A stretch of 64,000 nucleotides of DNA from positions 128,001-192,000 of the IMG/VR virus record IMGVR_UViG_3300032038_009890. One strand, written 5' to 3'. The translations under genes and the position numbers were made by a program. The notes under the pieces are model-generated. The model was not told where the DNA came from and did no database searches. It saw only the letters and a program-made list of their open reading frames with translations. Position 1 is the first letter of the stretch, and every line of letters begins with the position of its first letter. The DNA is from a virus. Its lineage: Duplodnaviria; Caudoviricetes. Positions 42,690-64,000 of this stretch are shown piece after piece.

Positions 42690-43520
42690 ATGATGGAAAC
42701 TGAGAAGATTTATAAAGGATATAAGAGGATCGTTGGTGATTCTGCTTATATCAACGAATATATGGATAATATTGATTGCAACGAGTGGAATATCAATGAG
42801 TATCTAATTATAGAGAATACAGATTTAGATGATAAGAATAAAGAAACTGAAATGCGGTGGGATGGCGAGAAGTTTGTCACGCTGAAGTTGCCGCCGCAGA
42901 AATATATAAAAGGGCGGAATGCGCTCCAGAGGTGTGCATTGGATATGTTGAATAACCCAGACATAACTATTTGTGTTTTGCTAGGGGTTCCCGGAAGTGG
43001 AAAAACGAAAATCGCCACGAGTATGAGTCTTTATGCTGTCAGAGAAAAAGGTTGGCAGTCTAAGATTTGTTTTGTGCGGGAACCTTGGGGAGAAGGCAGA
43101 TCTATGGGATATCTTAAGGGAGATTTCTCAGAGAAGAATGCCGTATGGGAATTACCTATAATTCAACAATTTGATGGACAGGAATTTGAAGTAGATCGTC
43201 TGAAACAACAAGGTATAATTGAATTTAATATACCTACTTATATGAAAGGACTAAGTTTTCCTAGTGAGATTGTAGTTGTGGACGAAAGTGAAGATATGAG
43301 TGAGAAACAATTACGATTGATTGGTACTCGTGTTGGAGAAGATGGAAGAATATTCTTTGCGGGAGATATTAAGCAGAGTCTATTGGATGCTTCTTCTCAG
43401 AATCCTTTAATTAAGATGTGTAACTATTTTAAGGGGAATCCCATGTTTGGATGTATTTGGCTTGATGAGGATGTTAGGTCTGAGACAAGTAAACTATTTG
43501 CGAATATGTATTTTGATTGA
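42690..43520 (+). CDS. phoH: PhoH-family ATPase
   Basis: GVPGSGKT, MGYLKGD, MKGLSF, VDESED, TRVGE, GDIKQ. Confidence 0.9.
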   Translation: MMETEKIYKGYKRIVGDSAYINEYMDNIDCNEWNINEYLIIENTDLDDKNKETEMRWDGEKFVTLKLPPQKYIKGRNALQRCALDMLNNPDITICVLLGVPGSGKTKIATSMSLYAVREKGWQSKICFVREPWGEGRSMGYLKGDFSEKNAVWELPIIQQFDGQEFEVDRLKQQGIIEFNIPTYMKGLSFPSEIVVVDESEDMSEKQLRLIGTRVGEDGRIFFAGDIKQSLLDASSQNPLIKMCNYFKGNPMFGCIWLDEDVRSETSKLFANMYFD

Positions 43521-43668
43521 GGTGGATATGAATAAGTTTGATAAAGAATACTTTACTGAGCATACATCTGAAAAAGAATATTTAATGAGTTTAGGGATTA
43601 AACAATCATTTGTAAAAGTAATAAACGAAGTTATATTTTAAGGACAATATGATTAAAAGGAGTTAATT

Positions 43669-43980
43669 ATGGAAATTTCTAATAATAATGCAATGTTTTT
43701 AGAGAATACTGATACTGTAGCAGAAGATACTGCTGAGAAGATGGAAGTCTATACGATTATTAACCCTGCCGTTGCTAGGCCTCTGATCAGGATGAGGGCA
43801 AAAGACGGCAAGAGCATGAAGCACAATCTGATTGATATTAGCCCGAATAAGGATAATCGAAACAGTTCTGTGTGGGTGTTTGAGGATTCGCTTGCACTTA
43901 GGAAGGACCTGCTTGCGATTACGAAAGCGCACAAGCGCGCCAAGGCTGAGCAGGAGAAGAAGCAAGAGAAGGAGGACTAA
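43669..43980 (+). CDS. Hypothetical protein
   Basis: AAAGGAG RBS; DISPNKDN..VWVFE. Confidence 0.6.
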   Translation: MEISNNNAMFLENTDTVAEDTAEKMEVYTIINPAVARPLIRMRAKDGKSMKHNLIDISPNKDNRNSSVWVFEDSLALRKDLLAITKAHKRAKAEQEKKQEKED

Positions 43981-43984
43981 TACT

Positions 43985-44596
43985 ATGGACCTTCTGGAAT
44001 TGACAAGTAATACGTCTGATGAGTTTTATAATGAGATAATGCGAAATTGTCTAGATAACAGGGTCCTCGTATTTAATCGTTCTGTAGATGAAAGCCTGAT
44101 TGAGGATATGATTTTGTATATTCTCAAGTGGAATAGAGATGATAAGGATGTGCCGAAGGAAAAGCGCAAGCCTATTACAATTTTAATTCACTCTCCCGGC
44201 GGAGAAGTGTTCTCAGGGAATGCGTTTGTTAATGTATTACTTGCAAGTGAAACACCTACCCGCGCAGTGGGTATTGGTATTGTAGCTTCTGCGGCATTTG
44301 ATATCTTCTTAGCGTGTGATGAAAGGATTTGTTGGAGTCGTAGTATATTCCTTATTCATGATGGAGCGCTAGATATTTCAACATCTTCCAAAAAAATGCG
44401 TGACGTTGTTACATTTTTTACGGAATCTATGGTCCAAAAAGATAAGGATTTTATTCTGTCTAGGACTAATATGGATGAAGATTTTTATAATGATATTTAT
44501 GGCGAAGAATTCTACTTTTATGCGGATAAAGCGAAAGAATATGGTGTTGTTCACAAGATTATTGGAGAAGATTGTGATTTGAGTTATATACTATGA
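43985..44596 (+). CDS. ClpP-like protease
   Basis: IHSPGG, VASAAF, LIHDG, AKEYGVVHKI. Confidence 0.85.
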   Translation: MDLLELTSNTSDEFYNEIMRNCLDNRVLVFNRSVDESLIEDMILYILKWNRDDKDVPKEKRKPITILIHSPGGEVFSGNAFVNVLLASETPTRAVGIGIVASAAFDIFLACDERICWSRSIFLIHDGALDISTSSKKMRDVVTFFTESMVQKDKDFILSRTNMDEDFYNDIYGEEFYFYADKAKEYGVVHKIIGEDCDLSYIL

Positions 44597-44614
44597 AAGA
44601 ATATAATATATATC

Positions 44615-45535
44615 ATGGATGATATTTGTGGAATTTATCAAATAAAGAATATTGTAAATGGAAAAGTATATATTGGGAGTTCTAAGCGAATTGGATCAAG
44701 ATGGAAAGACCATATTAGAATGTTGAACAATAATAAACATCATAGTTTGCATTTACAATCAGCTTGGAATATGTATGGGCCAGATAATTTTGAGTTTTCT
44801 GTATTAGAGAAGTGTTCTGTTGATGAGATATTTAAAAGAGAACAATATTACATTGACAAGACAAAGTGTTATGATATGGAATATGGTTATAATATTATGA
44901 GAACAGCAGGAGAATATGATAGAGTACAAACCGACATTAATAATTCCATTGCTCATAAAAATAAACCAAAATTAAATCAGCTAACTCCTCAAGCGAGACA
45001 CACTGAAGAACAAGTTAAAAGAATAATTAATTTACTGTTGGATAATAAACTTAGTTGCGCAAAAATAGCGGAACTTGAAAATGTAAATGAGCAAATAGTA
45101 AAAAATATTCTTTACAAACATAATTGGAAATATCTTACGTATGAAATAGAATTTCCGAAGCGAGAAGGAAAGAAAAAAGATTCTCGTGCAAAGTTAACTG
45201 ATGAAGATGTTGTAAATATATGTGAATTATTAATGAGTGGCGAAACATCTAGAAGTGTTGCTGAAAAATATGGTGTAACATATCAAGCAATAGATAAAAT
45301 TCGTGAACATAAGAATTTCAAATATATTACTGAAAAATATGATTTTCCTCCATCGGTTGGAAGTGGAACGAGAAAATTAACTCGTGATGATGTTGTTGAT
45401 ATTTTGAAAATGTCTAAGAATGGATGCACAGTAACTCAGATAATGGATAAATATACAAATATCAAATCCAGAAGTACAATTACTAATATATTGGCGAATT
45501 CTACATGGAAAGAGATTGATAGGAATTCGATTTAA
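44615..45535 (+). CDS. Free-standing GIY-YIG endonuclease with C-terminal HTH repeats
   Basis: GIYQIKN..VYIGSS..RWKDH..EQYYID..GYN; repeated KLTxxDV HTH units. Confidence 0.9.
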   Translation: MDDICGIYQIKNIVNGKVYIGSSKRIGSRWKDHIRMLNNNKHHSLHLQSAWNMYGPDNFEFSVLEKCSVDEIFKREQYYIDKTKCYDMEYGYNIMRTAGEYDRVQTDINNSIAHKNKPKLNQLTPQARHTEEQVKRIINLLLDNKLSCAKIAELENVNEQIVKNILYKHNWKYLTYEIEFPKREGKKKDSRAKLTDEDVVNICELLMSGETSRSVAEKYGVTYQAIDKIREHKNFKYITEKYDFPPSVGSGTRKLTRDDVVDILKMSKNGCTVTQIMDKYTNIKSRSTITNILANSTWKEIDRNSI

Positions 45536-45714
45536 AATGATTAGCATTACTTTTTTTAGACGGCAAAAGTGTTACGTATGATCGAGATGAGCATATTGAA
45601 TATGAATATGATAAGCTGTTTTCTATTATGAAATATAATGAACAATGGATTTTGTTATATAACATTAGTTATATTAGAAGTATTCAGATATATAAATGAG
45701 TAAAAGGAGATAAA

Positions 45715-45927
45715 ATGGCAAATTATACTTATAATCGTAAGACTGTAGATAAACTGAATGTTAAAGGGACTTTGTCCGAGGATTTGAGCAAGATTTCCTG
45801 CACTGATAAAGATGGCAATGATTTTGATGTGATGGTGCGCGACTGTCTGGAGCATTTTTCTGGCGAGTTGATCACGTTTAGCATCACGCTGTCTAAGGAT
45901 GAGGATTTGCTTGATGATGATATCTGA
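45715..45927 (+). CDS. YonK-like small protein
   Basis: LNVKG..LEHFSG..FSI pattern; precedes the metallophosphoesterase as in yonK-yonJ. Confidence 0.6.
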   Translation: MANYTYNRKTVDKLNVKGTLSEDLSKISCTDKDGNDFDVMVRDCLEHFSGELITFSITLSKDEDLLDDDI

Positions 45928-47128
45928 TCTTAATAAAAGGCCAGAAGAAGGAGAAGTTGAGTATCTCTGGCGTCTTGGTAATCTTCGGGCGGATGGTCTT
46001 GTAGATATGACTTGGACGGAGCTTACGGATGTGCTGAATGAGAATCTGCATGAGCCAGAGGACTATCTTGGTGAGTCTAGTTATAGGAAGCGCTATACGA
46101 TTATGAAACAGGCGTATGACGAGATTTTCAGCAAGATGTCTGGGTGTGAGGAAGAGAAGCTGACCATTCTTCAGAGGGAACTGGAGAAGGAAAAAGTCAA
46201 GGTTCGCGACGAAAAGAATGATTATAAGCGAATACTTAGAGAACAGGCGCGGAGAGAATCTTTTGAGGATATTATTAGGTCTGGTATCCAGAAGATAAAT
46301 GAGAAGACCCCTTTGAGCATTTTGAATGCAAGCTTCCCGGCGCTGTGTTCCGAGAAGGAGGCTGTAGCCTGTTTTTCTGACTGGCATTACGGTCTTATTA
46401 CGGATAATGTCTGGAACAAGTATGATACAGAGATTTGCGCCGAGAGGGTTCTGAAGTGTGTGAAATATATGGCGCAGTATTTGGTAGATCATAAGATTCG
46501 CAAGTTAGATATTGTTGTTCTAGGAGATATGTCACATGGGTGTACCCATTCATGTGCCTTATATACGCGCGAAGATGTCTGTGATCAGCTGATGCATGCC
46601 TCCGAGCTTTTGGCCGAGGCTGTTACCCTCCTTTCTAGGGTGGTTGATAGTGTCGAGGTTTATTTTTGTTATGGTAATCATATGAGAACCACGCAAAAGA
46701 AGGAAGAGGCGAAGCCTAGCGACAATATGGAAAAGATTGTGCCGTGGTGGCTTCAGTATCGACTCGCAGATAATAAGCGTATACATGTGAATATGTCGGG
46801 ATATGGAGAATTTACTTATTTTAAGGTACTGAATAAGTACAACATAGTTTGCATGCACGGCAATGATATTGACTTCAAAAGTATTGGCGTAACTGCCAAC
46901 TCGCTCTTCACTAGGATACTTGGTGAAAATATTGATTATACGATATCTGGCGACAAGCATCATCTTGAAGAGTTTGAAAAGTATGGAATTGAGAGTATTC
47001 TGGTTCGCTCTCTTTGCGGGACAGATGACTATGCTAGTTCGAGGCATCTGTTTGGTAAGGCGGGGCAAACCTTGATGATATTTAACGAAGATTATGGGCG
47101 GGAGTGTACATATCATATTCCGCTATGA
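45914..47128 (+). CDS. Metallophosphoesterase (YonJ-like)
   Basis: SDWHYG, LGD, GNH, MHG, DKHH. Confidence 0.85.
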   Translation: MMISDLNKRPEEGEVEYLWRLGNLRADGLVDMTWTELTDVLNENLHEPEDYLGESSYRKRYTIMKQAYDEIFSKMSGCEEEKLTILQRELEKEKVKVRDEKNDYKRILREQARRESFEDIIRSGIQKINEKTPLSILNASFPALCSEKEAVACFSDWHYGLITDNVWNKYDTEICAERVLKCVKYMAQYLVDHKIRKLDIVVLGDMSHGCTHSCALYTREDVCDQLMHASELLAEAVTLLSRVVDSVEVYFCYGNHMRTTQKKEEAKPSDNMEKIVPWWLQYRLADNKRIHVNMSGYGEFTYFKVLNKYNIVCMHGNDIDFKSIGVTANSLFTRILGENIDYTISGDKHHLEEFEKYGIESILVRSLCGTDDYASSRHLFGKAGQTLMIFNEDYGRECTYHIPL

Positions 47129-48660: not shown

Positions 48661-48823
48661 CTGGTATTTTTGAGTGTGTCACACCATGCTCAGGAATACT
48701 TTGCTAGTGATGAGACTAGCTACTTTTGTACGGAATAACTTTGGATAGGTTGTTATAATTTAACACTGATAAACATTGGTTCGTGTTTTCCACTATAATA
48801 TTATGAACCAGAAAGGCTTAAAA

Positions 48824-49561
48824 ATGATTAAGTAGGAACTGATTAAATTAAAAGGGATGAATCTCTTAGAACAAGACTTTGATGGAGATTCTATAATGAC
48901 TGTGTAGTTGAAAGATACTGGTAAAATTTATGTTGGTGTGAAATGGATTACAGAAGCATTGGGCATGAATAAAAATCATCACGATAGACAAGTGAAGAAT
49001 ATTCAAGCAGATATTGTACTTTCTCAAGGTGCGTCATATTTGACGCTCCCTACAAAAGGTGGAAATTAGAAGTCGTTATGTATTGAATTAGATTATTTAC
49101 CGTTATGGTTGGCAAAAATTCATGTGACACCAAATATGCTAAATGAGAATCCAGAAATAGCAGAAAAACTTATAGAATATCAGTTAAAGGCAAAAGATGT
49201 TTTAGCTAAGGCATTTTTAGGGAAATCAGAAGAATGGAATCTGCAACGTGAAGTTGGTAAGCTTGATCGAAAGAGATTAACAACGAGTATATGCAAGAAT
49301 ATAATTGATGCAAAACCATTAGATTATGCTCTATATACAAATATGATTTACGAAGTGTTGTTCAATAAAACAGCGGCACAGATACGAGAAGAAAAAGGAT
49401 TGGAAAAGAAATCACAATTAACAAGAGATCATTTTACAGAAAAAGAGCTAGGTTTGATAGATGAAGCTGAAACAATTGTAACAGCATTAGTTTCGTTAGG
49501 TTTTAAGAAAGATTATATCTTAGATCAATTAAGAAGGAAATATCAAAAGGCAATTGAATAA
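48824..49561 (+). CDS. P22_AR N-terminal antirepressor-like protein with three in-frame TAGs
   Basis: IYVGVKWITEALG..PTKGGN*KSLCIELDYLPLWLAKI; TAG at 48833, 48905 and 49067 (the last at the conserved GGxQ Gln). Confidence 0.85.
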
Positions 49562-49846
49562 CCTAATCTTTTTCCCTACTCCACAATTAGTAGAGGGAGA
49601 TTTTACGTACCTCAGCCACACATGAGGTGCTTATATGCCCTGACCCAAGGTGCTAAACAGGGTCATAATTGCATGAAAAAGCCTCTAGAACCACGTCGAG
49701 CGCTTTAGACGATAATTAACTTGTCTATGCGTCTGGCGTGTGTCTGAGGGCTTTCTGAGCGAATCCGCGGCGGCTCGTAAATAGGGTTTCGACTACCCTA
49801 GCGGATTTTGGCTAGTTTAGGGCCGTGAAAAGCTAGACGAAATTAG

Positions 49847-50131
49847 AGGGGATTAGTTTAAAGGGAAAACAGCTGACTCTCATTAAAAATAGGACGTTTT
49901 GATTGAAAAGTCAAAAATGAATAGTGTCAAATTCGGCGGAGGTCTTAATAAGAAAACGCCGAGCTAAGCTTAATTGAAAGTGTAGAGACTTAATGGCACG
50001 ACCTAAGTTTAAAATATGGTGAAGACAAAGTCCAGACTACAATGCAATATGCAGTTACGGCGACGTAATGTAGTAAGAAATCAGTAAGTGCGTTGAAGCC
50101 GCAATTGAGCGTTCGAATCGCTCATCCCCCA
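49847..50131 (+). tRNA. Amber suppressor tRNA(CUA); exons 49847-49880 and 50078-50131
   Basis: D arm GTTT AAAGGGA AAAC; GCTGA CTCT|AAA TCAGT gives loop CUCUAAA; long variable arm; GAGCG TTCGAAT CGCTC; GGGGAT/ATCCCC. Confidence 0.88.
49881..50077 (+). ncRNA. 197-nt ORF-less group I intron inside the anticodon
   Basis: P2 TTTTGATT-GAAA-AGTCAAAA; P3 GTGTCA/TGGCAC; P4 TTCGGCG/CGCCGAG; R GTAGAGACT; S AAGACAAAGTCC; U before the 5' site and terminal G. Confidence 0.9.
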
Positions 50132-50525
50132 GCAAAACACAGTTAAATATGAGGATTTGCAAACCTTATATGGGAAGGTGTCTTCTATCCCCTCCCCTTT
50201 CTGTGTTTGATTTAGATGATCAAAAACATTATGTTTTCCAAGGGATTGGCCTCGTTAGTCAGTTCTTGATTTTAGTAAAGGAGCAAAGTGACTTGAAGAA
50301 TTATTTTCACGCGACAATTAATTTTATCACAGAATATAATCGCATACAATACAAAATGGCTTATGGTTAGCAAGACACGTCTGACTAGGAAGACGAGTTT
50401 ATCCAAGATTTTAGCGAGAATCTAGCCGAGGCGCTGATGCATGACGTGGGTGAAAGCGAATTTGCGCAGAGACAGCTTTACGACTCGGCCAAGATTATTT
50501 GTGAAGAGTATAAGGAAAAAGAGAT

Positions 50526-50927
50526 ATGAAACGTATACGAAATATTGAGCTTGTTTTAGAGAATTGTGAGTTTGTAATTATAGATACCGAATATATTAAT
50601 GAAATAAAAATTATGGATATTCAGAAAAATATTATTGGCTATTCTGGCGCAAGCCATCCTAGTGTATATGAATATTGTGATAATGTACATATGGTAATTT
50701 ACGGCAGAATTAATGATACGGAGCAAGAAGGTTTGTTCTCTGATGATTATTCTATTGCGCAGAGATTGAAAGAAGGCCGAGATATTACTCAGATAGAGGT
50801 GCTTTATGATGATTATCCGCCCGAGATTTTGTGGGTGAATTTTAAGGGTGATTATTTTAATCAGTATCAATCTGGGTGTGTGGATGAAGAAGGTAATATT
50901 TGGATTGATATAAAGCGCCCTGTATAA
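50526..50927 (+). CDS. Hypothetical protein
   Basis: AAGGA RBS; IELVLENCE..DITQIEV. Confidence 0.65.
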   Translation: MKRIRNIELVLENCEFVIIDTEYINEIKIMDIQKNIIGYSGASHPSVYEYCDNVHMVIYGRINDTEQEGLFSDDYSIAQRLKEGRDITQIEVLYDDYPPEILWVNFKGDYFNQYQSGCVDEEGNIWIDIKRPV

Positions 50928-50938
50928 CTAGGGTGTTT

Positions 50939-51025
50939 GCAGTTGTGGCAGAGTTTGGTTGAATGCACCTCCCTGCTAAGGAGGCAATCCTTCGGGATTC
51001 ACTAGTTCAAATCTAGTCAACTGCG
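50939..51025 (+). tRNA. tRNA-Ser(GCU)
   Basis: GCAGTTG/CAACTGC, G73; CCTCC CTGCTAA GGAGG; variable arm AATCC TTCG GGATT. Confidence 0.92.
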
Positions 51026-51029
51026 GTTC

Positions 51030-51101
51030 GCCGATGTAATTCAATTAGTAGAATATTGGATTTGTAACCCAAAAACTACGGAGCATAACCGTACTTCGGC
51101 T
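51030..51101 (+). tRNA. tRNA-Thr(UGU)
   Basis: GCCGATG/CTTCGGC; TTGGA TTTGTAA CCCAA; TACGG AGCATAA CCGTA. Confidence 0.75.
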
Positions 51102-51212
51102 TTATGAGTAGGAAATACCGAGGATTGGCCTCCTTGGTATGAGTGTGTATCCTCGTTCAGCACACTCCCCTACTCTATTACAGATTGAACGAGAGAAATA
51201 CGAGGTGATAAA

Positions 51213-52460
51213 ATGGGTTATACACATGGTATATCGAAAGATGCAAAATTTAGACAATGTACGTGTTGTGGAGAAACATATCCAAACACAAATGAATATT
51301 TCTATAAAAACAATAGAAATGGTTTAGGTTCTATTTGTAAACAGTGTACAAGTAAGAGAAATAGAGAGATAAATAGTGAATTAAAGAAGAGATTTGTTAA
51401 TAATAATATAGAATACGATGGAGATAAAACGTGCATTTGTTGTGGTAGATCATTACCAAATTCATACAAGTATTTTCCAATAGATAAAACAACTAAAACT
51501 GGACTTAGGAATAAATGTCGTGAATGTAGTACAAATTATGGCCATTTTTTAGATGATGATGCTTTACGATATGAAATATGGACTAAAGAAGAAGATGAGA
51601 TACTTATAAAATACTATAAGGATTATCCCGGAAAAGAATTGAAGGAAAAGTTTCTTCCCAATAGAACAGTAAGAGCGATAGAATGTAGGGGTGGTTATTT
51701 GGGCCTTCAAGGGAAAAGTGAAGAAGGCAAGGAAAAAGCGAATAAGTATCGTTCGGAAATAATTAGTGATATTATGACTGGAAGAACATTTAGCGATGAG
51801 TGGAAGAAAAAGATTTCAGATTCAACTAAAAAATATTACGAAATACACGATGGTTATTGGAAAGGAAAACATAGGTCTCCTGAGCAAGTAAAGCAAATGA
51901 GCGAAAGAATGAAAGGGAAATGGGCGGGAGATAAAAATCCAAGACATATTCATCCCTTAAATGGCGCCGAAAACGGACGGTGGAAGGGTGGTATAAATCA
52001 GACATATATGGAGCTTCGTTCTGAAACAAAAGACTGGCAAAAAGAATCTATGGAATTCTGTAATTATGAATGTATAATAACTGGATTAAAATTTGATGAT
52101 ATTCATCATACTTTTCCTTTCAGAGATATTGTTGATGAGATATTTTCAAACATCTGTTTAGATATAAGAGAACAAGTGTTAGATTATACAGAAGATGAAT
52201 TTTAGGTTTTACAAGACGAAGTACATTATATGCATATATTGTATGGATTTGGAGCATGTTTAAAAAAAGAAATACATAAATTATTTCATGATAATTACGG
52301 ATATACTAGTATTACGCAATATGATTTTCTAGATTTTATTTATAGAATTGATTCTGGCGAATTTGATAAATGGTTTATAGATAATAATATCCCAATAAAT
52401 ATAAATTATAATTATGTTGATTATCTAGAAAAGATTGCATTTGTTTTAAATAATGAATAA
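51213..52460 (+). CDS. Zn-finger/NUMOD3/HNH-like endonuclease with one in-frame TAG (52203)
   Basis: CxxC pairs, WKGG, CIITG..DIHH, CLKKEIHKLFH; two ORF-track pieces in frame across the TAG. Confidence 0.75.
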
Positions 52461-52477
52461 AAGGAGGTACTGCTTCA

Positions 52478-53674
52478 ATGGCAGTTATAAAAGCACCAAA
52501 GAAGCTGACTCCAACACAGCTTCGTGAGGAAAATGAAAAATTAAAAGAAAAACTAGAAAATGGTGTTCGTTGTATAGTTTGTGGCATTATGAAAGATAAA
52601 AGTAAGTTTTATATAAATACAGATCCACATTGTAAATGTGAAGTTGGATGTGTATGTAAAGATTGTGCCAGAAAAATTGCATTAAGGGTAGATGAGAATG
52701 GTGAAGAACATGAAGTAACCAAAGAATCTTGTATAGAAGCGCTTAAACTATTAAACAAGCCATTTATCAATACTGTATGGGATGCTAGTGTTCAAGAATC
52801 TGATAATTTAATCGCAGGGAAAACAAAATCAAATCCTTGGGTCGCTTATATTAAGAACATAGCTATGGTCCAATGGGTCGGTAAGAATTTCTTTGACTCT
52901 GATATGTTTAAAAAAGGTTATGTAGATAATTCCTCTGATGGAAAAACAGAAATAACGTCTATACATGATATGACAGATGATGTACGTTCAACTTATGAAA
53001 TTAATAAAAAAACTACTATAAGGTTTTTAGGTTATGATCCTTTTGAAAACGAATCTATTGAAGAACAGCCACTGTTGTATGCAAAATTAGTTAGTTATTT
53101 TGATGATTCTGTAAAAGATGACGGATTAAAGTTGGAAGCTGTTATAGAAATAGTATAGAGTTTTAAAGATATAAAAACAATTAATGATGCTATTTCTAAA
53201 TACAAAAAAATGTTAGGTGATAATCCATCAGTAATATCTACTATTAAATCACTTGCTGAAACAAAACAAAAAATGATTAGTTCTGCTTTAGCACTTGCCA
53301 AAGACAATGGAATATCTGTGAATCATAATAATAGTAAAAGTAAAGGTGCAGGAACATTAAGTGGAATTATAAAAGAAATGTCAGAGATGAATCTGGATGA
53401 TATTGAAATTAACACATTTGACTATGAAACTAATAAGGCTATTTCAGATATAATGGAAGCCAATTTCAGAAATCAAATGAATCAATTAAATCCTGATGAA
53501 AATGATTGGGAAAAAGAAATATATCACCAAGCAAAGTTATTGCATAGCTTACAAAATGAGAGAGATAAGGCGGTCGAATATTGTAGGTTACTTCGTAAAG
53601 AGAATAAAGATTTAAAAGAGTTTCTTAAAGAGCGAGGTATTATAGACGATGCGTTGAATGTAATAGATGAATAA
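52478..53674 (+). CDS. YonG-like protein (candidate terminase small subunit) with one TAG (53156)
   Basis: CxxC..CKDC; pieces in frame across EIV*SFK; precedes the large terminase. Confidence 0.75.
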
Positions 53675-55586
53675 AGACATCACATTAATGGGTGATGCTA
53701 TTGAGGAATTTAATCCTAAGAATTTTACATATTTTGTAAAACCTACTTATTATGATATGTCAAATCTTAGACTTGAAGGACTCAAAAAAACCGCAGAAAT
53801 TGTATAGTGGGGGCGAAGAAATCCTGTTAAATTCTGCGAACGATTTATGGGAATAGAGTTCCTAGATTACTAGAAATATGTTTTTATGGAAAGTTGGATA
53901 ACACCATATGTTGTTTGGTGTATGACAAGAAATGGTGGTAAGACTACGTTGGGTAGTCCGTTCCTAATGGCAAAAACTCTTTTAATTCCATATTTCGAAG
54001 CATATATTTTATCTGGTACTGGTGCGCAAAGTATTGGTATGATGAAAAAGATAGAATAGATAACTAAAAAAGAGATTGCTAGTTTTACTGGATTGACAGA
54101 TGTATTTATGAATGAATTAGTTAAAAGTCAAGCCAATTCAACTGGTATATCACATAATCCTAATTCGTGGTCTTACAAATTGTATTCAGGATCAAGTCTT
54201 GCGACAATTAATAGTAATTATGACGGGTCGAGAGGTAAACGTAGCAGATTAAATTTTTATGATGAAGCCTCGTATGTAATGGAAGATATGTATAATGCCA
54301 CCCTTCCATTTGTTACGCAGAATTCAGATTTCGCATTAGGTGGGAATGTCGATGTTTCTCTTCTTGCGCCTAATTTTCCGAATCAGATTATATTTGCTTC
54401 ATCTGCGGGGTCAGTAGATGATTATTTTTACAAGATGTATAAAGAATATTCTCTTCATAGTATGGCAGGAGATAAACGTTATGCTTGTTTTGATATCGAT
54501 TGTGATCTTGTTATGAATGCTACATATAACGGAAAAGTATACCCTGTCCCACTTTTGACGCAAGAAAAAATTGATACTGAAATGAAGATTAATCCAATAA
54601 AAGCGAATAGAGAATATAGGAATAAATTTGATATTGATGGTGGCGATGAGATTATAGTAAAGAAATCGCAAATACTTCGCAATAGCGTAGTAAGGCCACC
54701 AGAGTTAGTAAACATAGACGGGAAAAGTTTATACGCAATTGGTTGGGATTTGGCCGCAAAAAAAGACAACAGTATATTAACTGTTGGTAAATTGATACAT
54801 TCAGATAAACGTGGATGGAGAATGGAAATAGTAAATTGTATAAATTTATTAGATAAAGAAACTAAAAGGCCATTAACTACACCAGAGCAAGTAAAACGTG
54901 TAAGAGAAGAAATGATTAACTATAATGGTACTGGTTCAGCTGATTATGAAAATATCAAGTATCTTATGATGGATGCAGGATCTGGTGGTGGTGCAAGTCA
55001 AGTATTAACATATTTATTTGATGATTTTTATGAAGATCATCACAAAGGCGAAGAAGAATTTCACCATAAAGGAATGATTGATAAAACATATGATTTCTGT
55101 CAACCATATATTAAAAGATATCCAGATAACGTTGATATTGTTAGAATGATTGAACCAACAAAATACAAAGTATAGATGTATACAAATTTAATAGAGCTGG
55201 TTGAACAAGGATTGATATCATTTACGGCAGACTATGATTATCATGGCATCTTGACAACATTAATTGAGGAAGATGGCGAAGAAAAAGAATAGATATATAA
55301 ACTATCATATTAGGAAGAGCAAGCATTGAAATAGATTGATGCTTTAAAAGAAGAAATATGTCACATGTATAGATATAAATCATCTAATGGTAATATAAGA
55401 TACGATCTTGCTCCCGGTTTCGAGAATATTATTGGCGATGATAGAGCATACACACTTGCTTTATTGTCAAAATGTTTAATGGACATGAGACAACAGGATA
55501 GTATAAAAAAGAAGCCGAAAAGTGATAGTGAATCTATGAAATAGATATTTACTGTTCGTCAACCCAGAAAAGTAACAAGATTTTAA
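53667..55586 (+). CDS. terL: Terminase large subunit with eight in-frame TAGs
   Basis: LDY*KY Q-motif, TRNGGKT Walker A, FYDEA, ASSA, IGWDLA, MDAGSGG, DDRAY; TAG at 53805, 53871, 54057, 55173, 55290, 55311, 55332, 55542. Confidence 0.92.
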
Positions 55587-55600
55587 AGGAGGTGCCGCTT

Positions 55601-57163
55601 ATGGCGGACAATAAAAAAACCACTGATAGTGGCACAAAAGAATCACAGTATAAGCAAGGATTTAATTCTGCTTATTCTTACAAGCGTGATCGCGCGCAAA
55701 TAATGGATTTTGCTAAAATATAGGACTATATACAGCGGAATCCTACTAAAACATCTAATAGAGTCTTTACGCAATATACAAAAGACATTGTAAAAACCTA
55801 TCTGCAATCACCTGCTACCAATCAAGATACATTGCGCGAGATATCTAGGTTCTTATGTAGAAACTCTATGTTATATCAGAAGATGATAATGTACCTTGCT
55901 TCTATGCCTTTGTTTTATTACACTATCACTCAAGTAAATAATCTTGATGAAGAAATAGATTCCGAAAAGGCAATGAAGGATTATCAAAAGGTGCTTGAGA
56001 ATTTTAATAGATTTAATATAAAAAAAGATATGTATACGGCGTTATATATCGCAATTAGAGATGGCTTCTACGTTGGATATGTTTATGATGATAAACAAGG
56101 TAGAACGTTTTTGATGCCTCTTGATGTACAGTATTGCCGTATTATGGGTAAGAACTATGCCGGGGAATGGGTAGTATATTTTAATGCGGCTTTCTTTGAC
56201 GCAGGGACAAACTCTGAATTTGTTGAAGGAATTGATGGAAACGTTGAAGGGGCCACATGGGCACCAGAGTTTATTGAAGGATATAAGGCCTATAAGAGTA
56301 AAGGTCGTGACTTTCAGTGGTTCCGTCTTGACCCAAAATATTGTTGTGTGCTTTTAATTGGCCCAGATGATGAATTTTCCTTCCCTCTTCCGCATTTTCT
56401 CCCATTGTTTACTGATTTGATGGACTTACTTGATTTACAGCAGATTCTCATGTCTAAACAAGAATTAGAGAATTACGCGTTGATTATAAATAAGATTCCT
56501 CTTGTGGATAACGGAAATTCTGGGGACATTGATGACTTTGCTATTTCTAATGAAATGATTAATTATTTTCGCAATCTAGAAGAAGAGGCTGTACCTGACC
56601 TAGTTGGCGTAGTTACCGCACCATTTGACGTAGATAAGATTATGTTTAAGGACAGCGCGGTGGCAGGAGATACTGATGCTCTTGGACAGTCGCTTAAGAA
56701 TCTATTCTCTAATAGTGGACTTACCGAGACAATTGTTTCTGGTGGTGACTCATCTTCTAATATGTCAATTAAGTTAGCACAATTGTGCGATCAAGCTAAT
56801 GTATGGGTTTGGGTAAATAGATTAGAGTCATGGCTTGATTTTTATATTAAAGAGAATATTGCTAAAGGATATATTTTTGAGATTCTAAGAATAACTTGGT
56901 ATAACGAGGATGATTATATCCAAAAATATAAGGATATAAGCACGCTCGGAGGCCCCGCTTTGGATTATTTAAGCGTTGTTGAGGGATCTCCTTATAAAGC
57001 GATTAATAAGATAAGATTTGAGAATGCTATTGGGATTAAAGATATAATGATTCCGCTTCAGTCGAGTTATAATTCTTCCAGTAATTCTCCGGGAAGGCCA
57101 ACAACTGATGATGATGAATTGTCTGGGAGTGCGGAAAGAAGTAGGAATACCCAGTCTAAGTAA
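55601..57163 (+). CDS. Portal protein (YonE-like) with one TAG (55721)
   Basis: Follows terL; AGGAGG RBS; C-terminal PLQSSY..GRP. Confidence 0.8.
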
Positions 57164-57186
57164 AATAGAAATGAAAAGGTGAAGTA

Positions 57187-57366
57187 ATGTTAGGACATTT
57201 TGTAAAAACATCTGATGAAGAAACAGCACGAAGACTCAGAGAGGCAGGTTTTGTAGAGCTTGCTAAAGAAGATTCTAAGTGGGTATTTCTTAATGAGGGT
57301 GGAAAATTAAACTTTGAAGAAAACAAGGATTTAAAAATTACATATAATGATATGTTGTGTGTATAA
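57187..57366 (+). CDS. Small hypothetical protein
   Basis: FVKTSDEETA..GF..WVFLN; 59 aa. Confidence 0.55.
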   Translation: MLGHFVKTSDEETARRLREAGFVELAKEDSKWVFLNEGGKLNFEENKDLKITYNDMLCV

Positions 57367-57415
57367 GCTCTCCTCTCTTCTGGAGAGTTAATCTATAAAG
57401 AAAGGAGGAGAAAAA

Positions 57416-59044
57416 TTGCACAAGATACTTACTTATAATGATTTAATGAGGTTTTGTGAAGAACAGAATTATACTAGTTTTAGCGCAAAGGATTCTGGAT
57501 ACTAGATTTGTGTATAGGTTCCTGCTACATTTGAAAAAGATGAGGAATACGAGGATGATTCTCTTCTTGTTGGAAATGTAAAACTTCTGCACACAGAAAT
57601 TAATCGTAATAACTCTGCTGTGACCGAAGCCGCCGCGAAGAAGATGATGAAGACGATTGCCTATAAGCCTATTCTTGCAAACTTTACAGATGTTAATGGT
57701 GAATTAGATTTTACATCTCATGATTTTGATCTGAATGATGATGGCACGATCACGTACTATGAGAAGCAAGTTGGGTGCTTTACGTCTGATAAACCTTATA
57801 TGGAAGAAGACGGAGAACATAAGGATAGGAAATACGTATATGCGAAGTGCGCAATCCCTCGTCAGTATACTGAAGCGGCAAATATTATTGAGCGCAAAGG
57901 TGGTACAGATATTAGCGCGGAACTTGGAATAAATAAACTTTCTTATGACAGCAAATCCAAATGTCTTATTCTTGAGGATGTGGTGCTGATGGGTGCTACT
58001 CTTCTTGGCGTAGACGCTGTATCTGGAGATCCGATTGCTCCGGGTATGGAAGGTGCAAAAGTAGATATTGCGGATTTTAGCGTAGACAAAAATTCTGTTA
58101 TAAATAAGACTGATTTAATTAATGAGATTACTCAAGCAGTTGTTGCGAAGCTTGATGATCATATTGCGAAAAATTTCGCGAACGACAACCAAGGAAAGGA
58201 GGAATGTGGTTTGGAAAATTTTGATGAAAAAATCAAAGATGTTGAAACTGAGACCGTTGAAGATAAGACTGTCGAGGAAAATACCACTGAAGAGGAAACT
58301 CCTGAAGTGGTTGAGATGAATGCAGAGGAATCTGAACAGGAAGTTGAAGAGACTAATGAGGAAGATAATTCTGAGCAAGAAGTTGAAGAGGAAAGTACCG
58401 ATGATAAGGTAGTAAATATTGAATACTCTGTAAATTACAACGGTGAAGTAAAAGTATTCTCTTCTTCGCTAATGGAGAAGCTTAACGCACTGTATGAGTT
58501 AGTTAACACTACGTATGGTGAGGCTGATAATACTTGGTATGATGTTGACGCTTATGATGAAGATAAACTTGTTATTATGCATGATTATTGGAATGGTAGG
58601 CACTATAGACAAAATTATCAGGTAAGGAATGATGTGTATTCTCTTAAAGGAGATCGTGTCGAAGTGTTCACGACTTATCTTACGAAAGATGAGCAAGCTC
58701 AAGTTGAGTCTATGAAAGCTAATTATGCTGTTATTTCTGAGAAACTCGCCAAGTATGAGGCAGAGCCTGAGAAGATTGCTATTTTGGATTCTAAGGAATA
58801 TACAAGTATTCGTGAGTCTGCGGAATTTGCCGAGCTTCGTGAGGAAAAGAATCATTTTGATTTTTCTGTTGATGAGGTAAAGAGTAAGCTTGATAGTATC
58901 CTTCTGGCCTATGCAAAATCTGGGCAGTTAAATTTTGCCCGGACTAAACAGGAAGAAAAGACCGAAGCGCCGAAGAAAGATTTCTATGCATTTGCTAGGA
59001 TTGAGAGAAATACAAGTTTTTTGGATGGGCTTCTGAAGAAGTAA
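57416..59044 (+). CDS. Prohead protease/scaffold (YonD-like) with two TAGs (57503, 57515)
   Basis: AGGAGG plus TTG start; LHTEINRN, KPILA, SAEL, PGMEGA; acidic coiled tail. Confidence 0.75.
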
Positions 59045-59123
59045 TAAAAGAAATATAAATTATGTAAGTAACAGGAATTGGCCTGTTATTCTTCTATTAA
59101 AATATGAAAGGAGATAGATAGAT

Positions 59124-59741
59124 ATGGCTATTTATGGGAATTTGGACGAGCGTCCAATTGGACAGCATGGTGTGTTTGAAGCTTCGCTTCTTAAAGCCAC
59201 CATTTCCGGTCATCTTTGGGATTGTCTTGCAGTGACCGAGACCACCACTGGTTCTGGAGATAATATCAAGACCGAGAGAACACCTATTGATATGGACAAC
59301 GGTGTATGTGTTAAAGTAGGGGATTTTACAAACTTTAAGGACGGACTGCAAGAGAGGTATTGCACTATTGCGGGAGCGAGGGATAAAGTTGGTGTTACCG
59401 GGTCGGTCGTAAATGTAAAGGATGGGCGTACGGCTCTTGAATCGACTGAGCCTTATTTCTTTGTTCGTGCAGGAGAGGATTCTAAGGTTTATGAGGTTCA
59501 AGGAGATCTGTATGATGGTGATATCTTTGGCGTTGGTTTGCATCAGTTTACCTAGGCTACTCAGAGTCTTGTAAAGCGCGGTAACTATGTTGTACTTGAT
59601 GGTACTGGGAAGTATGTTGCTCAGGCGGCTAAGCCAACCATGACGAATTATGGATTTGTTGCTTAGATTCATAGTACTTGGACAAATAATGTTTATACTA
59701 TTGTTCGTCTGTACGTTATTCAGAATGTTGATAATAACTAA
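59124..59741 (+). CDS. Capsid decoration-like protein (YonC-like) with two TAGs (59553, 59664)
   Basis: DMDNG..GDIFGV; lies between the protease and capsid genes. Confidence 0.65.
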
Positions 59742-59764
59742 TTTAAGAAGGGAGGGAAAGATAT

Positions 59765-60868
59765 ATGAAAGATATTACTTATTTTAGTGCTAATGTTGTA
59801 AAATGTTTTGATAATAGCATTGACAACATGAAGGTATTTAATGATCTTATGATGGATACTGCTAATAATGTTTATGACAAATATTCTAAAGCAGATTCTA
59901 ACGAGATGATTCGTAATCAGTTTAATAAAGTTCTTGGTATTAATTATCGTTCCGCTACCCGTACCGAGCGTCGTTAGGCTCTGAGGGCACACGGTATTGA
60001 GATTAGTTCTATTATCGAGAACGTGCTTATTGACAGGATGGTATCTGGTATTAATGAGCAGAACATGCCTATTATGCGTATTGTTGAGGATAGGAATATT
60101 GCTCTTGGTGATATCAACTATTTTACTATTGACGCGAAAGCCCTGCTTCAGGTTTCTAAGTGGGGGAGCGGCCATCATGATATAGTACGTTAGAAAATCT
60201 TACCTGGTAAAGGATTTTCAATTGATGTCTCCAAGTATGTAATTAAGACTTATGCATCTTATGATGAGTTTATGATGGGCAAGGTAGATTTTGCCGCTCT
60301 TATTGACCTGCTTTACAGGAGTATTGAGAAGTATCGTTTCCAAGCTCTATATGAGAATGTTATGGCTCTGGATACTTATCTTCCTGCCGACATGAAGGCT
60401 AGTATTGGTATTGCAGAATCTACTAAGCAGGATATCCTTAACCATATTGAGAAGGTCAGTGCTACCACTGGTAAAGAGGTTATGCTTGTTGGCACCCGTT
60501 TCGCCCTTCAGAAGCTTCAGAGTACTGTAAACTACAATATGTGGTCTGACAACATGAAGGACGAGCGTTATCAGAATGGTATTCTTGGCAATTACGAAGG
60601 TTATGAGTGCATGGTACTGAACCGTATTAATGCCGAGGGCACTAGGGATTCTATCTTTACCGCTAACGATAATAAGAAGATTTATATTCTTCCGATTGAT
60701 CCTGACTTCAAGCCGATTAAGCGCATTAACAGCGGTGATGTTGAGTACTTTGAGCGTGGCATGGATGGTTCTATGCAGGACCGTACCATGGAAGGTGAGG
60801 TTTGGTACGAGGAAGGTATTGGTATCATAATTGACGAGCTTTATGGCGTAATCATTGATAACGCTTAA
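59765..60868 (+). CDS. Major capsid protein (YonB-like) with two TAGs (59975, 60191)
   Basis: Continuous 367-aa frame once TAG is read; GSGHHDIVR*KI; position in the head module. Confidence 0.8.
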
Positions 60869-60903
60869 TTAAATGTTACATTGATTAAAAGGAGAAGTAA
60901 ATA

Positions 60904-61581
60904 ATGAAAGTATTTGAATTGTCAAAGGAATTTGACGTTACAAATAAAGAAATGATTGACTTTCTTAAAGGGAAGGGATACAAGGTTTCTAGTCATAATC
61001 AAACTTTAACTGATGAGATGATTGACTCCGCCAGAAAGGACTTTATGAAATCTGAGGATGAGAATAAGTCGGTCAAAGAGGAAGAAGTGGCTCCAGTGAA
61101 GAAAACAACTAGAAAAGCTGTTCCTGCTAAGACTGTGAAGCATTTTGAGCCTACGGATATGATTAGGTGTCATAGTGTTTCTCCATGGCCTGTTGTTAAG
61201 CCGGGTGCAAATCAGGTTTATCGTTGGCCATATTTTGGCTATGAAGAGCTTGTTGCGTACCGCGATCTTCAGTCATGGAAGCAATCTCAAACTATTAAAG
61301 GACCTGAGATCATTATTGATGACCCAGATCTTTGCGAGCTTTGGAAAAATGATCTGGATAAGGTTTATAAGATGTATTTTAATGTTTCTTATCCAGAGGA
61401 ATTTTTTGATGTCGAAGATGAGGAATTTGAGGATTTGCTCAAGAAAGCACCAAAGACCTTCCAAGAAGTTATCAAATATACTGCAATGGATATGATTCGT
61501 AACGAGAATTATCCCAGTATTCAAAAGATTAAGATTATTGATGATGTGTTGAAGACTGGCATTATTGAGTTTGTAATTTAA
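60904..61581 (+). CDS. Protein with an IF2-N-terminal-like domain (YonA position)
   Basis: MKVFELSKEFDVTNKEMIDFLK..VSSHNQTL. Confidence 0.7.
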   Translation: MKVFELSKEFDVTNKEMIDFLKGKGYKVSSHNQTLTDEMIDSARKDFMKSEDENKSVKEEEVAPVKKTTRKAVPAKTVKHFEPTDMIRCHSVSPWPVVKPGANQVYRWPYFGYEELVAYRDLQSWKQSQTIKGPEIIIDDPDLCELWKNDLDKVYKMYFNVSYPEEFFDVEDEEFEDLLKKAPKTFQEVIKYTAMDMIRNENYPSIQKIKIIDDVLKTGIIEFVI

Positions 61582-61601
61582 TATTAACGGAGGTGATGTT
61601 T

Positions 61602-62057
61602 ATGACCTCTGAAACCGAAAATATCTTTTCGCGGTTTTATAACCGTGTCGAAGATTACAAAATAGCAGGTTTAGAACAATAGATAGTAGATGAAATGTTG
61701 AGTGGATATTTAAAGACGGCTATATCTTAGCCACGTGTGCGAAGATTATTTAAAAAAATATTCTTTGATCCAGATATAGGAGAAGTTGAATATACTATGT
61801 TAGATGTTTGGGATAACGACACTGATTAGGAATATGTTGAGGAAGTTTTAGCATTTGGTATGGTGTTAGCTTGGATGTCTCCAAGATATTACTCTACTCT
61901 GCTGACTCAATAGGCATTTACTAATAAGGAACAGTCGTTTTATTCTCAAGCAAATCATATGGCTGAAATCAAGAACATGTATGAAAAAGCTAAAATTGAT
62001 TTTAATAAGTATATTCGAGATAGAGGGTATTCGCTCTCTTTAGTTAACGCAGAATGA
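61602..62057 (+). CDS. Head-tail adaptor-like protein (YomZ-like) with four TAGs (61680, 61728, 61827, 61911)
   Basis: GGAGG RBS; LAFGMVLAW, FYSQANH. Confidence 0.7.
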
Positions 62058-62389
62058 TAACAAAATATGGTGAATTACCAGATCATTAGATATCTACCAT
62101 AAAGAAATATCTGCGTTCCAAAATATTTTATTTACTATTATATGTTGACCCAAAAGAATCGATTAAATACCAAGATGTTGATGTTAATAAAGCTTTTAAT
62201 GATATATTTCATCAACTTGTTGGTTTTAATAATATAATGTTTGAGCCACCAGAATTGGTTATAGTGATGAATTATTTAGAAGCCGCACGAACTATTTATA
62301 ATAGCGCGGATTTTGATTTTCATTAGTATCGTAAACTGATCTTGGATGCGGGAAGCAAGATTATGGAAGTGAAAGAAGGTGATTCCTGA
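62054..62389 (+). CDS. Hypothetical protein in the virion module with two TAGs (62087, 62324)
   Basis: Start and stop overlap the neighbouring genes; KIFYLL..YRKLILDA. Confidence 0.65.
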
Positions 62390-62929
62390 TGGCAATCACC
62401 AAAGAAATGTATTCTAAGTTATTAGGAACAAATACTATGGGTAGAGCTAGAAAAGCGGATTCTGATATGGTAATGGCGGAAACTTGGTGGAATGACATTT
62501 AGGCTCAGACGGCCTATTGTTATGATTATTCGCATGATATTGGGGATGAAAGGTTCTTTTTGCGGGACCTGCACCCAGATAGAGATGCGAATAAAACACC
62601 CATTGCCGTAAAGTTTATTCGCCATGAATTGCAGTCTCTTAACAAGGACCCTGTGAGCTTTTGGCTCTAGTTTATGCCGGGGCAAGAATGTAATTTAGAT
62701 TACTATTCGTCTACGCTTGGCAGATATAGGGCTACGTGGCCTGTAGGGTTGTATTTTGATATACGGGCCGAGGATGGAAAGTATAACAAGTGGTTATGTG
62801 TGAATACTGCGAATTATTGGGGAAATCAGTTTCCTACTTATCAGATTCTACCTTGTGATTATGTTTTTTAGTGGATTCATGATGGATATAAGTATGAGTG
62901 TCCGGGAGTACTTAGCTCACAAAATTCGT
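62389..62929 (+). CDS. Head-closure/neck-like gene, exon 1, with three TAGs (62500, 62668, 62869)
   Basis: TWWNDI*..WL*FMP..PVGLY..KWL..ILPCDY..GVLSSQNS, then intron. Confidence 0.65.
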
Positions 62930-64000
62930 AGGTTATGCGCTTTACATTGGAAACAGTGTATCGAAAGTTCCTTAATTTCTGGGAGGACTTTATTGAGGAT
63001 AAAGTTTATCAGAAGCGAAGTCGGATTTATTCGAAACGTTCAACGAGCAAAGTAGGGCAAGTGCCTGAAAATAGGAACCACCTAAGTCGTAAAGATATGG
63101 TGTTGATGTGCTCTAAACTTATAGGTGACTATAAGAAAATCATCTTATTACTTAGGTTATAAGACAGGACAGGGAGTAGCTACCTTTTGTAATGGCCTCT
63201 AACGTTACAATTACTGTCTTTAACATATTATTTTATAGAGGAGGAATAATATATGTATAAAGTTGGCAATAGATTCGAATTTACAAATGAAGAAAAAGAA
63301 CAAATTGTAAAAATGTTTGTAGAACAAGGATTGTCCATGAGAAAAATACAATCGATGTATAATATAGCTAGATCCAATCCAATCGCAAGAGTGTTAGATG
63401 AATATGGTATTGATCATAGTAGAGGAAACTTATCTGCATTTAAACCAAATTTTCCGGATGGAATATATAATAAAAAAGAAGAAAAAAGAGTTATTGATGA
63501 AATCAGCAAAATACCATCAAAAGATCAAAAATATAATATAAATGATAAGTTTTTTGATGATTTGAGAAATCCGACATCAATATATATTATCGGTTTATTA
63601 TATGCTGATGGATGTAATCATAGTGAAACGTCTATTACTCTATCACTTGAAGAATGTGATCATGAAATTTTGGAAACAATAAATCAATTATTGAAAAATG
63701 AAAAACCAGTTACATTTCAAGATAAAAGTAATAAACATGATTTCGGATATGATTATGAAAACCAGTATCAACTGACGATAAATAATAAAAGGATTGCTAA
63801 AGTATTAAGTATACTTGGAGTAGTACCAAGAAAAAGTTTGATATTGGAATTTCCGAAATGGCTTCATCCAAGTATGTACTCGCATTTTATAAGGGGAGTA
63901 TATGACGGAGATGGATCTGTATATAGATATTATAAAGATGGAGTTCCTCGTAACACTACATTGACAATTACATCTACATAGCAGTTTTGTAAAGCAATTA
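62930..64000 (+). ncRNA. Group I intron (5' boundary approximate; runs past the window end)
   Basis: P3 GTTCCT/AGGAAC; AATTTCTGGGA at 62974; ATCAGAAGC at 63008; GTTCAACGAGC at 63038; GATGTGCTCT at 63105 (covarying P7). Confidence 0.75.
63253..64000 (+). CDS. Intron-encoded LAGLIDADG homing endonuclease; TAG at 63979 read through, truncated by the window
   Basis: YIIGLLYADG and HFIRGVYDGDG motifs, PRKSL. Confidence 0.85.

Follow-up and report, generated by a model that had tools for sequence, protein, structure and literature searches.

The window analysed here is a stretch of 64,000 nucleotides from a tailed phage (Caudoviricetes), namely bases 128,001-192,000 of the IMG/VR record IMGVR_UViG_3300032038_009890. 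In all probability (about 85%), the part of it from 48.8 kb onwards belongs to the late arm of an SPbeta-like provirus of 217 kb, at the end where the head genes lie, and this provirus follows genetic code 15 by translating TAG as glutamine (Gln or Q), with a suppressor transfer RNA (tRNA) gene split by an intron as the decoder and a threshold on the late genes. The recoding pattern is already known for many gut phages, and the intron-split decoder is its only less ordinary feature. The source record is a 217,075-bp entry with a GC content of 37.6%, classed as a provirus and 98% complete according to CheckV. Coordinates given as 'genome' refer to this whole record and all others to the window.

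TAG as a sense codon in the late arm

The open reading frames (ORFs) were tiled with TAA and TGA as the sole stops. The coverage of the 217-kb genome by tiled ORFs increases from 0.81 to 0.92 when TAG is taken as sense, as against 0.82 for TGA and 0.87 for TAA, and the comparison of coding density under codes 11 and 15 restricts the gain to genome 1-55 kb and 175-217 kb. This agrees with a preliminary description of the window, made from its letters, which had claimed that TAG is a sense codon in the late genes. As a measure, the gain in coverage fails to sort 20-kb loci by code. Under table 11 the span of 48.8-64 kb is fragmented into short ORFs. When TAG is read through, the span consists of 15 contiguous plus-strand ORFs, of which 13 carry 33 in-frame TAGs and all terminate at TAA or TGA only, or run off the window end. 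The block is made up as follows.

48776-49561 (+): antirepressor (P22_AR_N, phrog Ant), likely start ATG 48824; first TAG-containing gene, 3 TAGs
50149-50529 (+): late ORF with no family match; 2 TAGs
50526-50927 (+): TAG-free ORF
50938-51101 (+): tRNA-Ser(GCU) and tRNA-Thr(UGU)
51213-52460 (+): HNH / endonuclease VII-like; 1 TAG
52478-53674 (+): YonG-like (syntenic gene in relatives PF27269 YonG_N); 1 TAG
53667-55586 (+): large terminase, terL (tblastn matches annotated Bacillus phage terminases); 8 TAGs
55592-57163 (+): portal (phrog_2739, E 1e-83; phage portal matches); 1 TAG
57416-59044 (+): YonD-like head-module protein (phrog_3313; syntenic PF27290 YonD_N); 2 TAGs near the N-terminus
59124-59741 (+): head-module ORF, earlier called a protease; no family match and 6 homologues only; 2 TAGs
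59765-60868 (+): YonB-like, probable major head protein by position (phrog_4088; syntenic PF27364 YonB); 2 TAGs
60904-61581 (+): TAG-free ORF
61593-63162 (+): three head-tail joining ORFs (61593-62057, 62054-62389, and 62389-63162); 4, 2, and 4 TAGs
63253-64000 (+): late ORF continuing past the window end to genome 192218; 1 TAG

The gene-by-gene counts of the preliminary description mostly match these figures, except that 62389-63162 has four TAGs and not three and that the gene at 50149 had been left unlisted. Its total was likewise 33, but three of those TAGs had come from outside the span (two in a GIY-YIG gene and one in an ORF at 8675). The LAGLIDADG label it gave to a gene with one TAG was not confirmed, and Pfam recognised neither terL nor the capsid nor the YonG-like protein.

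Genome-wide, the late arm comprises 63 ORFs and 29,492 codons with 255 TAGs, which amounts to 8.6 per 1000 codons or 19% of the presumptive Gln codons, and 47 of the 63 ORFs have at least one TAG. All stops of the late arm are TAA or TGA, except for one ORF running off the record end. ORFs of 6327, 2858, 2282, 1752, and 1496 amino acids under TAG-sense contain 36, 10, 14, 23, and 19 TAGs, respectively, with zero interruptions by TAA, TGA, or a frameshift. The off-frame TAG density is similar across all arms (17-20 per 1000), and hence the pattern is not mutational.

Early alignments of a reverse transcriptase (13 TAGs) and terL (8 TAGs) gave about 31-41% Q at the TAG columns over a background of 3%, and one TAG column of the reverse transcriptase was Q in 120 of 120 homologues, a figure that is partly circular. 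The circularity arose because the protein collection had translated recoded relatives with TAG as Q, and these alignments were therefore replaced by tests at the level of codons on standard-code homologues that lack in-frame TAG and are intact under table 11. Among 52 unique TAG-free terL homologues, the query TAG columns 47, 69, and 556, three of the eight in this gene, hold CAA or CAG in 44, 52, and 46 sequences, respectively. A Codetta-style log-odds over 27 TAG columns in 10 window genes enriched Q alone (+23.2; K -32, N -41, S -47, with W and Y below S), and Q is the majority residue in 11 of the 27 columns. As a control, the statistic assigned the right residue to codons of the query for Q, Y, S, K, L, and E.

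Individual genes point the same way. The Gln positions which the preliminary description had recognised by eye hold up in the alignments, as the TAG of LDY*KY in terL is Q in 52/52 and that of GGN* in the antirepressor in 105/150 representatives. The latter is the TAG at residue 98; those at residues 20 and 44 complete the set for this gene, and residue 44 is Q in 80/150. The TAG at residue 143 of the YonB-like gene is Q in 33/39 homologues, that of the YonG-like gene in 37/51, and that of the HNH-like gene in 14/25 standard-code homologues. The 62054 gene has an invariant-Q column (14/14), and two columns of the 62389 gene have Q in the majority. Among the recoded relatives TAG interchanges with CAG and CAA at identical columns, and the Gln codons of terL itself are 11 CAA, 3 CAG, and 8 TAG (36%). 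Assignment of TAG to Gln, i.e., genetic code 15, is thus supported by alignment, and insertion of Gln at UAG is predicted. Pyrrolysine was considered and ruled out, since the extra arm of the suppressor described below is long, its anticodon stem has the normal 5 bp, and the columns hold Q, not K.

The remaining arms are nearly free of TAG. The early arm (minus strand, genome 55.8-131 kb; 92 ORFs, 20,808 codons) encodes PolIII alpha, DnaB, a RecJ-like DHH protein, a Pnkp/Rnl1 kinase-phosphatase-RNA ligase, NrdD, and adenylosuccinate synthetase, and its replication and nucleotide genes are TAG-free, although at the late-arm rate about 180 TAGs would be expected. The middle arm (window 25-48.6 kb) has 26 ORFs and 6,446 codons. 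Apparent TAGs in both arms fall mostly in the first ~16 codons of over-extended ORFs or in antisense ORFs. Well-placed internal TAGs occur only in a handful of ORFs, and the recognisable ones among these are two endonuclease genes, the GIY-YIG gene at 26638-27099 and an endonuclease fused to a ligase half. The earlier statements that the lysogeny genes and the long middle genes (PhoH, ClpP, phosphoesterase, and an RNA polymerase candidate) have no TAG, and that the GIY-YIG gene has two, were borne out.

975-1943: recombinase core-binding-domain ORF (PF22822); TAG-free
4787-5800 (-): tyrosine recombinase (PF00589); TAG-free
genome 55811-57007: tyrosine recombinase (PF00589); TAG-free
26638-27099 (+): GIY-YIG homing-endonuclease gene (PF01541) within the TAG-free arm; TAGs at residues 38 and 136 of 153
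42690-47128 (+): PhoH, ClpP, GIY-YIG endonuclease, and YonJ-like phosphoesterase, the middle genes just upstream of the span; TAG count 0

TAG is also avoided as a terminator. It ends at most 5 of the 118 early and middle ORFs and none of the late arm, as against 147 of 831 (17.7%) in standard-code relatives (p = 1e-5). TAG is thus nearly purged as a stop genome-wide, and the whole phage is therefore adapted to a cell state without UAG termination.

The RNA polymerase candidate is apparently split, with parts at 38105-40207 and 41472-42134 (+) and a gap at 40208-41471. Its matches include Enterocloster phage genes, one of them annotated 'RNA-dependent RNA polymerase', and the gap holds a sub-threshold group I match (41162-41439; 30 bits vs a cut-off of 50).

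Two loci elsewhere in the genome are heavily recoded. The reverse transcriptase (genome 214037-215284; L009:2337-3584) is of the diversity-generating retroelement (DGR) type, and its 13 TAGs make up 68% of its Gln codons, the genome maximum; an RT-2 RNA match lies just upstream, and BspA-type leucine-rich repeat proteins with 11 and 14 TAGs are nearby. Likewise, a CHAP and SH3 endolysin (genome 47288-48880; L003:7488-9080) carries 12 in-frame TAGs, or 22.6 per 1000 codons, which fits the published lysis-gene bias.

A suppressor tRNA gene split by a group I intron

For UAG, a single decoder was found, a split phage gene at 49847-50131 at the start of the recoded block, and its CUA anticodon exists only after the intron is removed. 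It consists of three parts.

49847-49880 (+): tRNA 5' exon (acceptor strand, D arm, 5' side of the anticodon stem, loop CUCU)
49881-50077 (+): group I intron of 197 nt, between U35 and A36 of the CUA anticodon
50078-50131 (+): tRNA 3' exon (loop AAA, 3' side of the anticodon stem, 21-nt extra arm, T arm, acceptor strand, A73)

When joined, the exons are folded by ARAGORN into an 88-nt cloverleaf with the anticodon CUA in the loop CU-CUA-AA. The intron matches Rfam RF00028 at 49865-50054 (53.5 bits vs a gathering cut-off of 50, E 4e-12, with the stretch searched alone); a gathering search of the whole 64 kb misses it along with several tRNAs, which are revealed in stretches of 2-9 kb. The 5' splice site is preceded by U and the intron ends in G; guanosine-dependent self-splicing is predicted. 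Neither ARAGORN with default settings nor a custom scan for cloverleaves detected a plain tRNA-CUA in the 217 kb, and low-threshold ARAGORN returned noise only.

The junction of the exons is fixed by comparison. A recoded relative (L015) has an uninterrupted, syntenic orthologue at L015:7000-7087. It lies 3 kb upstream of terL, and three of its stems show compensatory changes. Thirteen IMG/VR loci, the L015 contig included, carry such uninterrupted orthologues with the same anticodon arm and a loop, CUCUAAA, identical to that of the joined exons, and the junction is therefore known exactly. Over the tRNA family, 12 of 24 pairs of the cloverleaf show compensatory changes, and 96% of cells are paired vs about 40% in slid controls. 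A blastn search of the suppressor gene against the related loci gave no match, and the orthologue was recovered by motif search and ARAGORN. No intron-bearing allele turned up in IMG/VR by a search for gaps of 185-215 nt or for the intron core. The intron is thus so far unique to this genome.

The D and anticodon arms of the suppressor are closest to phage tRNA-Trp(CCA), with 80% identity over positions 8-43 and one loop base different, and its whole-length identity is highest to tRNA-Tyr(GUA) (69%). An origin from tRNA-Tyr was the first idea and was given up, as both arms fit tRNA-Trp better. In the family the 1:72 pair is weak (A-U, G-U, or A.C), G2 is invariant, position 73 is mostly G, and the loop of the 21-nt extra arm has an invariant UGA after a pyrimidine. 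In E. coli, amber versions of tRNA-Trp receive Gln. In addition, TAG suppressors have been reported to be glutaminylated there (Borges et al., 10.1101/2021.08.26.457843). The preliminary description had proposed to look in the rest of the genome for release factor 2 (RF2) or a glutaminyl-tRNA synthetase (GlnRS); the phage has no RF1 or RF2 domains and no Glu/Gln synthetase. A GlnRS-type protein is present in both of the Lachnospiraceae metagenome-assembled genomes (MAGs) in which related prophages reside.

A scan for promoters and terminators around the suppressor stayed at chance level. About 40 nt upstream of it, an acceptor-plus-T-arm minihelix without an anticodon arm is visible by eye (49761-49808, +), possibly a processing signal for the tRNA precursor. 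Other unusual tRNAs occur in the genome. The coordinates 124070-124208, 125265-125378, 127213-127331, and 127844-127905 (genome, -) are listed jointly for three insert-bearing tRNAs and one 62-nt RNA. The tRNA genes, at the first three of these positions, have inserts of 54-67 nt in the anticodon region, two of which are homologous, and the 62-nt RNA of the set is tRNA-like and lacks an anticodon arm. The insert-bearing tRNAs of genome 124-128 kb were rejected as the suppressor, as no 7-nt loop with CUA can be obtained from them. An 87-nt tRNA at 142-228 (-) has a long extra arm and the loop CU-UUU-AA, and its D arm resembles that of tRNA-Tyr(GUA) of standard-code relatives, which gives a Tyr-type body with a Lys anticodon.

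A possible lock on late genes and its alternatives

The following sequence of events is proposed. The group I intron would self-splice and produce an 88-nt tRNA with a CUA anticodon, which, with its Trp-like body, weak 1:72 pair, and extra arm, would be charged with Gln by the host GlnRS and compete with the host release factor 1 (RF1). The early and middle proteins could be made in a naive host, but the chance of completing a late protein with n TAGs would be about (suppression efficiency)^n and would thus show a steep threshold. Below it, the proteins for virion and lysis, the antirepressor, and most homing endonucleases would stay off, both in the lysogen and in early infection. The preliminary description had already read the late genes as locked for as long as the suppressor is scarce, which is compatible with the layout but stays a hypothesis; the same lock has been hypothesised in a published study (Borges et al., 10.1101/2021.08.26.457843).

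Several observations weigh against this account. The suppressor follows immediately on the TAG-bearing antirepressor within the recoded block and is possibly co-transcribed with the genes it would unlock, which weakens a simple picture in which it accumulates first. Sixteen of the 63 late ORFs have no TAG, and two middle-arm genes, 30215-30607 and 35167-35880 (+), do end in TAG (with an active suppressor these would be extended by 15 and 11 residues, respectively, to the next stop). With regard to splicing, P1 aligns poorly to the Rfam model, and a pairing of only about 3 bp is visible for it by eye. The tRNA body is Trp-closest with a long extra arm and not Gln-like, so that Gln charging rests on the protein alignments and the E. 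coli precedents. The evidence for GlnRS comes from the hosts of related prophages, the phage's own host being absent from the record.

The bias of TAG towards late genes could also be the passive footprint of expression timing, if changes from CAG to TAG are neutral where the tRNA is present and lethal earlier. This permissive drift has a modest chance of being the right explanation. It is favoured by the free swapping of TAG and CAG among close relatives in conserved and non-conserved columns alike, by the broad range of the TAG share of Gln codons (0-68%), which extends beyond lysis genes, and by late-arm numbers of TAG (255) and CAG (353) that are near parity, as a genome of 38% GC close to mutational equilibrium would show. 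However, drift does not by itself predict the purge of TAG stops from early genes, and the TAGs of homing-endonuclease genes embedded in the early arm speak against it, as does the heavy recoding of the endolysin (12 TAGs), the antirepressor, and the DGR reverse transcriptase, which recalls the lysis genes of Borges et al. A second doubt concerns the amino acid, since Trp, Tyr, or Ser at TAG could be suggested by the resemblance of the D arm, acceptor stem, and anticodon arm to tRNA-Trp, by an extra arm as long as is usual in tRNAs for Tyr, Ser, and Leu, and by a few TAG columns with an S, Y, or E majority. Such an assignment is quite improbable in view of the log-odds (Q +23.2 vs S -47, with W and Y lower), of TAGs common to several recoded relatives at columns that are Gln in 52/52 or 14/14 standard-code homologues, and of the charging of amber suppressors with Gln in E. 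coli.

It is similarly hard to credit that the host or another resident element decodes UAG and that the split phage tRNA is inactive. The splicing of this tRNA is itself predicted, no other intron-bearing allele was found in IMG/VR, and some published recoded phages are without suppressor tRNAs (PMC10607447). Nevertheless, the exons are undamaged and their fold is as good as that of the 13 intron-less orthologues, the intron scores above the Rfam curated cut-off, and the avoidance of TAG in early genes argues that a naive host terminates at UAG. Decay of the prophage, with the TAGs as damage and the genes as pseudogenes, would agree with an integrated provirus whose late genes look fragmented under table 11. 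Yet only TAG interrupts the frames, in numbers far beyond chance, and ORFs as long as 6327 amino acids are free of in-frame TAA, TGA, and frameshifts, and therefore decay is effectively excluded; conserved Gln sites common to relatives, a matching suppressor, and the 98% completeness speak against it as well.

A further step would be a ribozyme-gated code switch, in which 47 late genes (virion, lysis, antirepressor, and DGR) are conditional on self-splicing of the intron and the splicing efficiency sets the timing or threshold of the lytic programme. This extension of the code-15 reading is rather doubtful. If true, the guanosine cofactor, Mg2+, and folding would tune the lytic programme, possibly jointly with the apparently intron-split YonO-like late RNA polymerase gene of the same window. 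Given the 13 orthologous loci without the intron, it would be a recent, lineage-specific layer over a known system.

Relatives, known systems, and significance

The host is probably of a Clostridia type from gut or rumen. Two related prophages were found in Lachnospiraceae MAGs and hundreds of close relatives in metagenomes. By terL and portal, the cultured relatives are distant only, at about 25-28% identity (large Bacillus, Lactococcus, and Brevibacillus siphophages). The DNA of 84 related loci was fetched and its codons were read directly. Six relatives with 81-83% terL identity have 1-9 TAGs each in terL, and the 78 loci at or below 70% identity have none. In a quick terL tree, rooted at the midpoint only, the six recoded rows form one clade (99 by the Shimodaira-Hasegawa-like approximate likelihood ratio test, SH-aLRT) with 35 standard-code rows as its sister, as would be expected if recoding arose once and recently in this family of phages. 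In several standard-code relatives (e.g., L013, L058, L070, and L091), terL is 965-1010 amino acids long with an intein-like insert, for which the precomputed Pfam label is LAGLIDADG or Hom_end.

The temperate SPbeta-like backbone proposed in the preliminary description is upheld in part. The proteins of the closest relatives belong to the YonJ, YonG, YonD, YonB, YomW, and YomU Pfam families in SPbeta order; these Yon/Yom (PF27xxx) matches were precomputed for relatives of 83% identity, and local Pfam gave none on the window's own proteins. In close relatives this order of structural families is the same as in SPbeta, and the phage itself shares with SPbeta the lifestyle of a large temperate Firmicutes siphovirus (a provirus with tyrosine recombinases here) and a candidate for a YonO-like single-subunit RNA polymerase. 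On the other hand, the identity is 25-28% at best, the portal included, and tyrosine recombinases are found in place of the serine recombinase SprA, as the genome has no Resolvase domain that would indicate a large serine recombinase of this type. SPbeta has 134 kb and the standard code, whereas this phage has 217 kb and is TAG-recoded.

Code-15 gut phages and prophages (crAss-like, Lak, Garnet, and Topaz) have TAG-rich structural and lysis genes and TAG-free integrases (Borges et al., 10.1101/2021.08.26.457843). Each element of the reading given in the preliminary description has thereby been published for other phages. The present phage resembles them in its recoded homing endonucleases inside early genes, its phage-encoded suppressor tRNA, the recoding in closely related lineages, and the existence of prophages in standard-code Firmicutes or Bacteroidetes hosts. 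It differs in its SPbeta-like siphovirus module, its size of 217 kb, and its Lachnospiraceae-type relatives, and also in that it has no release factor or synthetase and its suppressor gene is split by an intron. No intron in a suppressor tRNA is mentioned in that study, where the word 'intron' occurs three times in other connections (10.1101/2021.08.26.457843). Another comparison is phAss-1 (proposed Phassvirus), a TAG-recoded 136-kb siphophage of Clostridia with three plain tRNA-Sup-CTA genes and no reported lysogeny (PMC10607447). In both, TAG stands for Gln in virion genes such as terL, portal, and tape measure, the tape measure protein is very long, a dedicated synthetase is lacking, and a Clostridia host is predicted. 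A tblastn search with the window terL against a collection expected to include phAss-1 matched only Bacillus phages at about 25%, and therefore the two are not close relatives.

Coupling of RNA processing to recoding is known from theta ribozymes, which are like those of hepatitis delta virus (HDV); they adjoin the suppressor tRNAs of recoded gut phages and trim one end, and about 19% of the theta-linked suppressors are predicted to be of the Trp isotype though their phages use code 15 (PMC10879173). Here too, a self-processing RNA is coupled to the maturation of a code-switch tRNA with a Trp-like body. However, theta lies beside the tRNA, whereas the intron lies within the anticodon and no anticodon exists before splicing.

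Group I introns occupy the anticodon loops of some bacterial tRNAs, for example, cyanobacterial tRNA-Leu(UAA) and tRNA-fMet and Azoarcus tRNA-Ile. They are similar in being small, ORF-less introns of the anticodon loop with a very short P1, and they differ in that they interrupt ordinary cellular elongator or initiator tRNAs, in contrast to the phage amber suppressor, which an entire alternative code relies on, and the insertion at U35|A36 seen here. The literature, of which the coverage was incomplete, yielded no account of a phage suppressor tRNA that contains a group I intron.

With regard to annotation, table 11 calls about one third of the late genes as fragments, and standard tRNA finders miss the decoder. 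For the evolution of the code, the recoded clade stands next to a large standard-code sister clade from its own phage family and offers an origin of code 15 that is clean and can be dated, of use in the study of how a code change sets in. The purge of TAG stops reaches genes that never use TAG as sense. The intron-split suppressor is a small addition to the known couplings in phages of RNA processing with a code switch.

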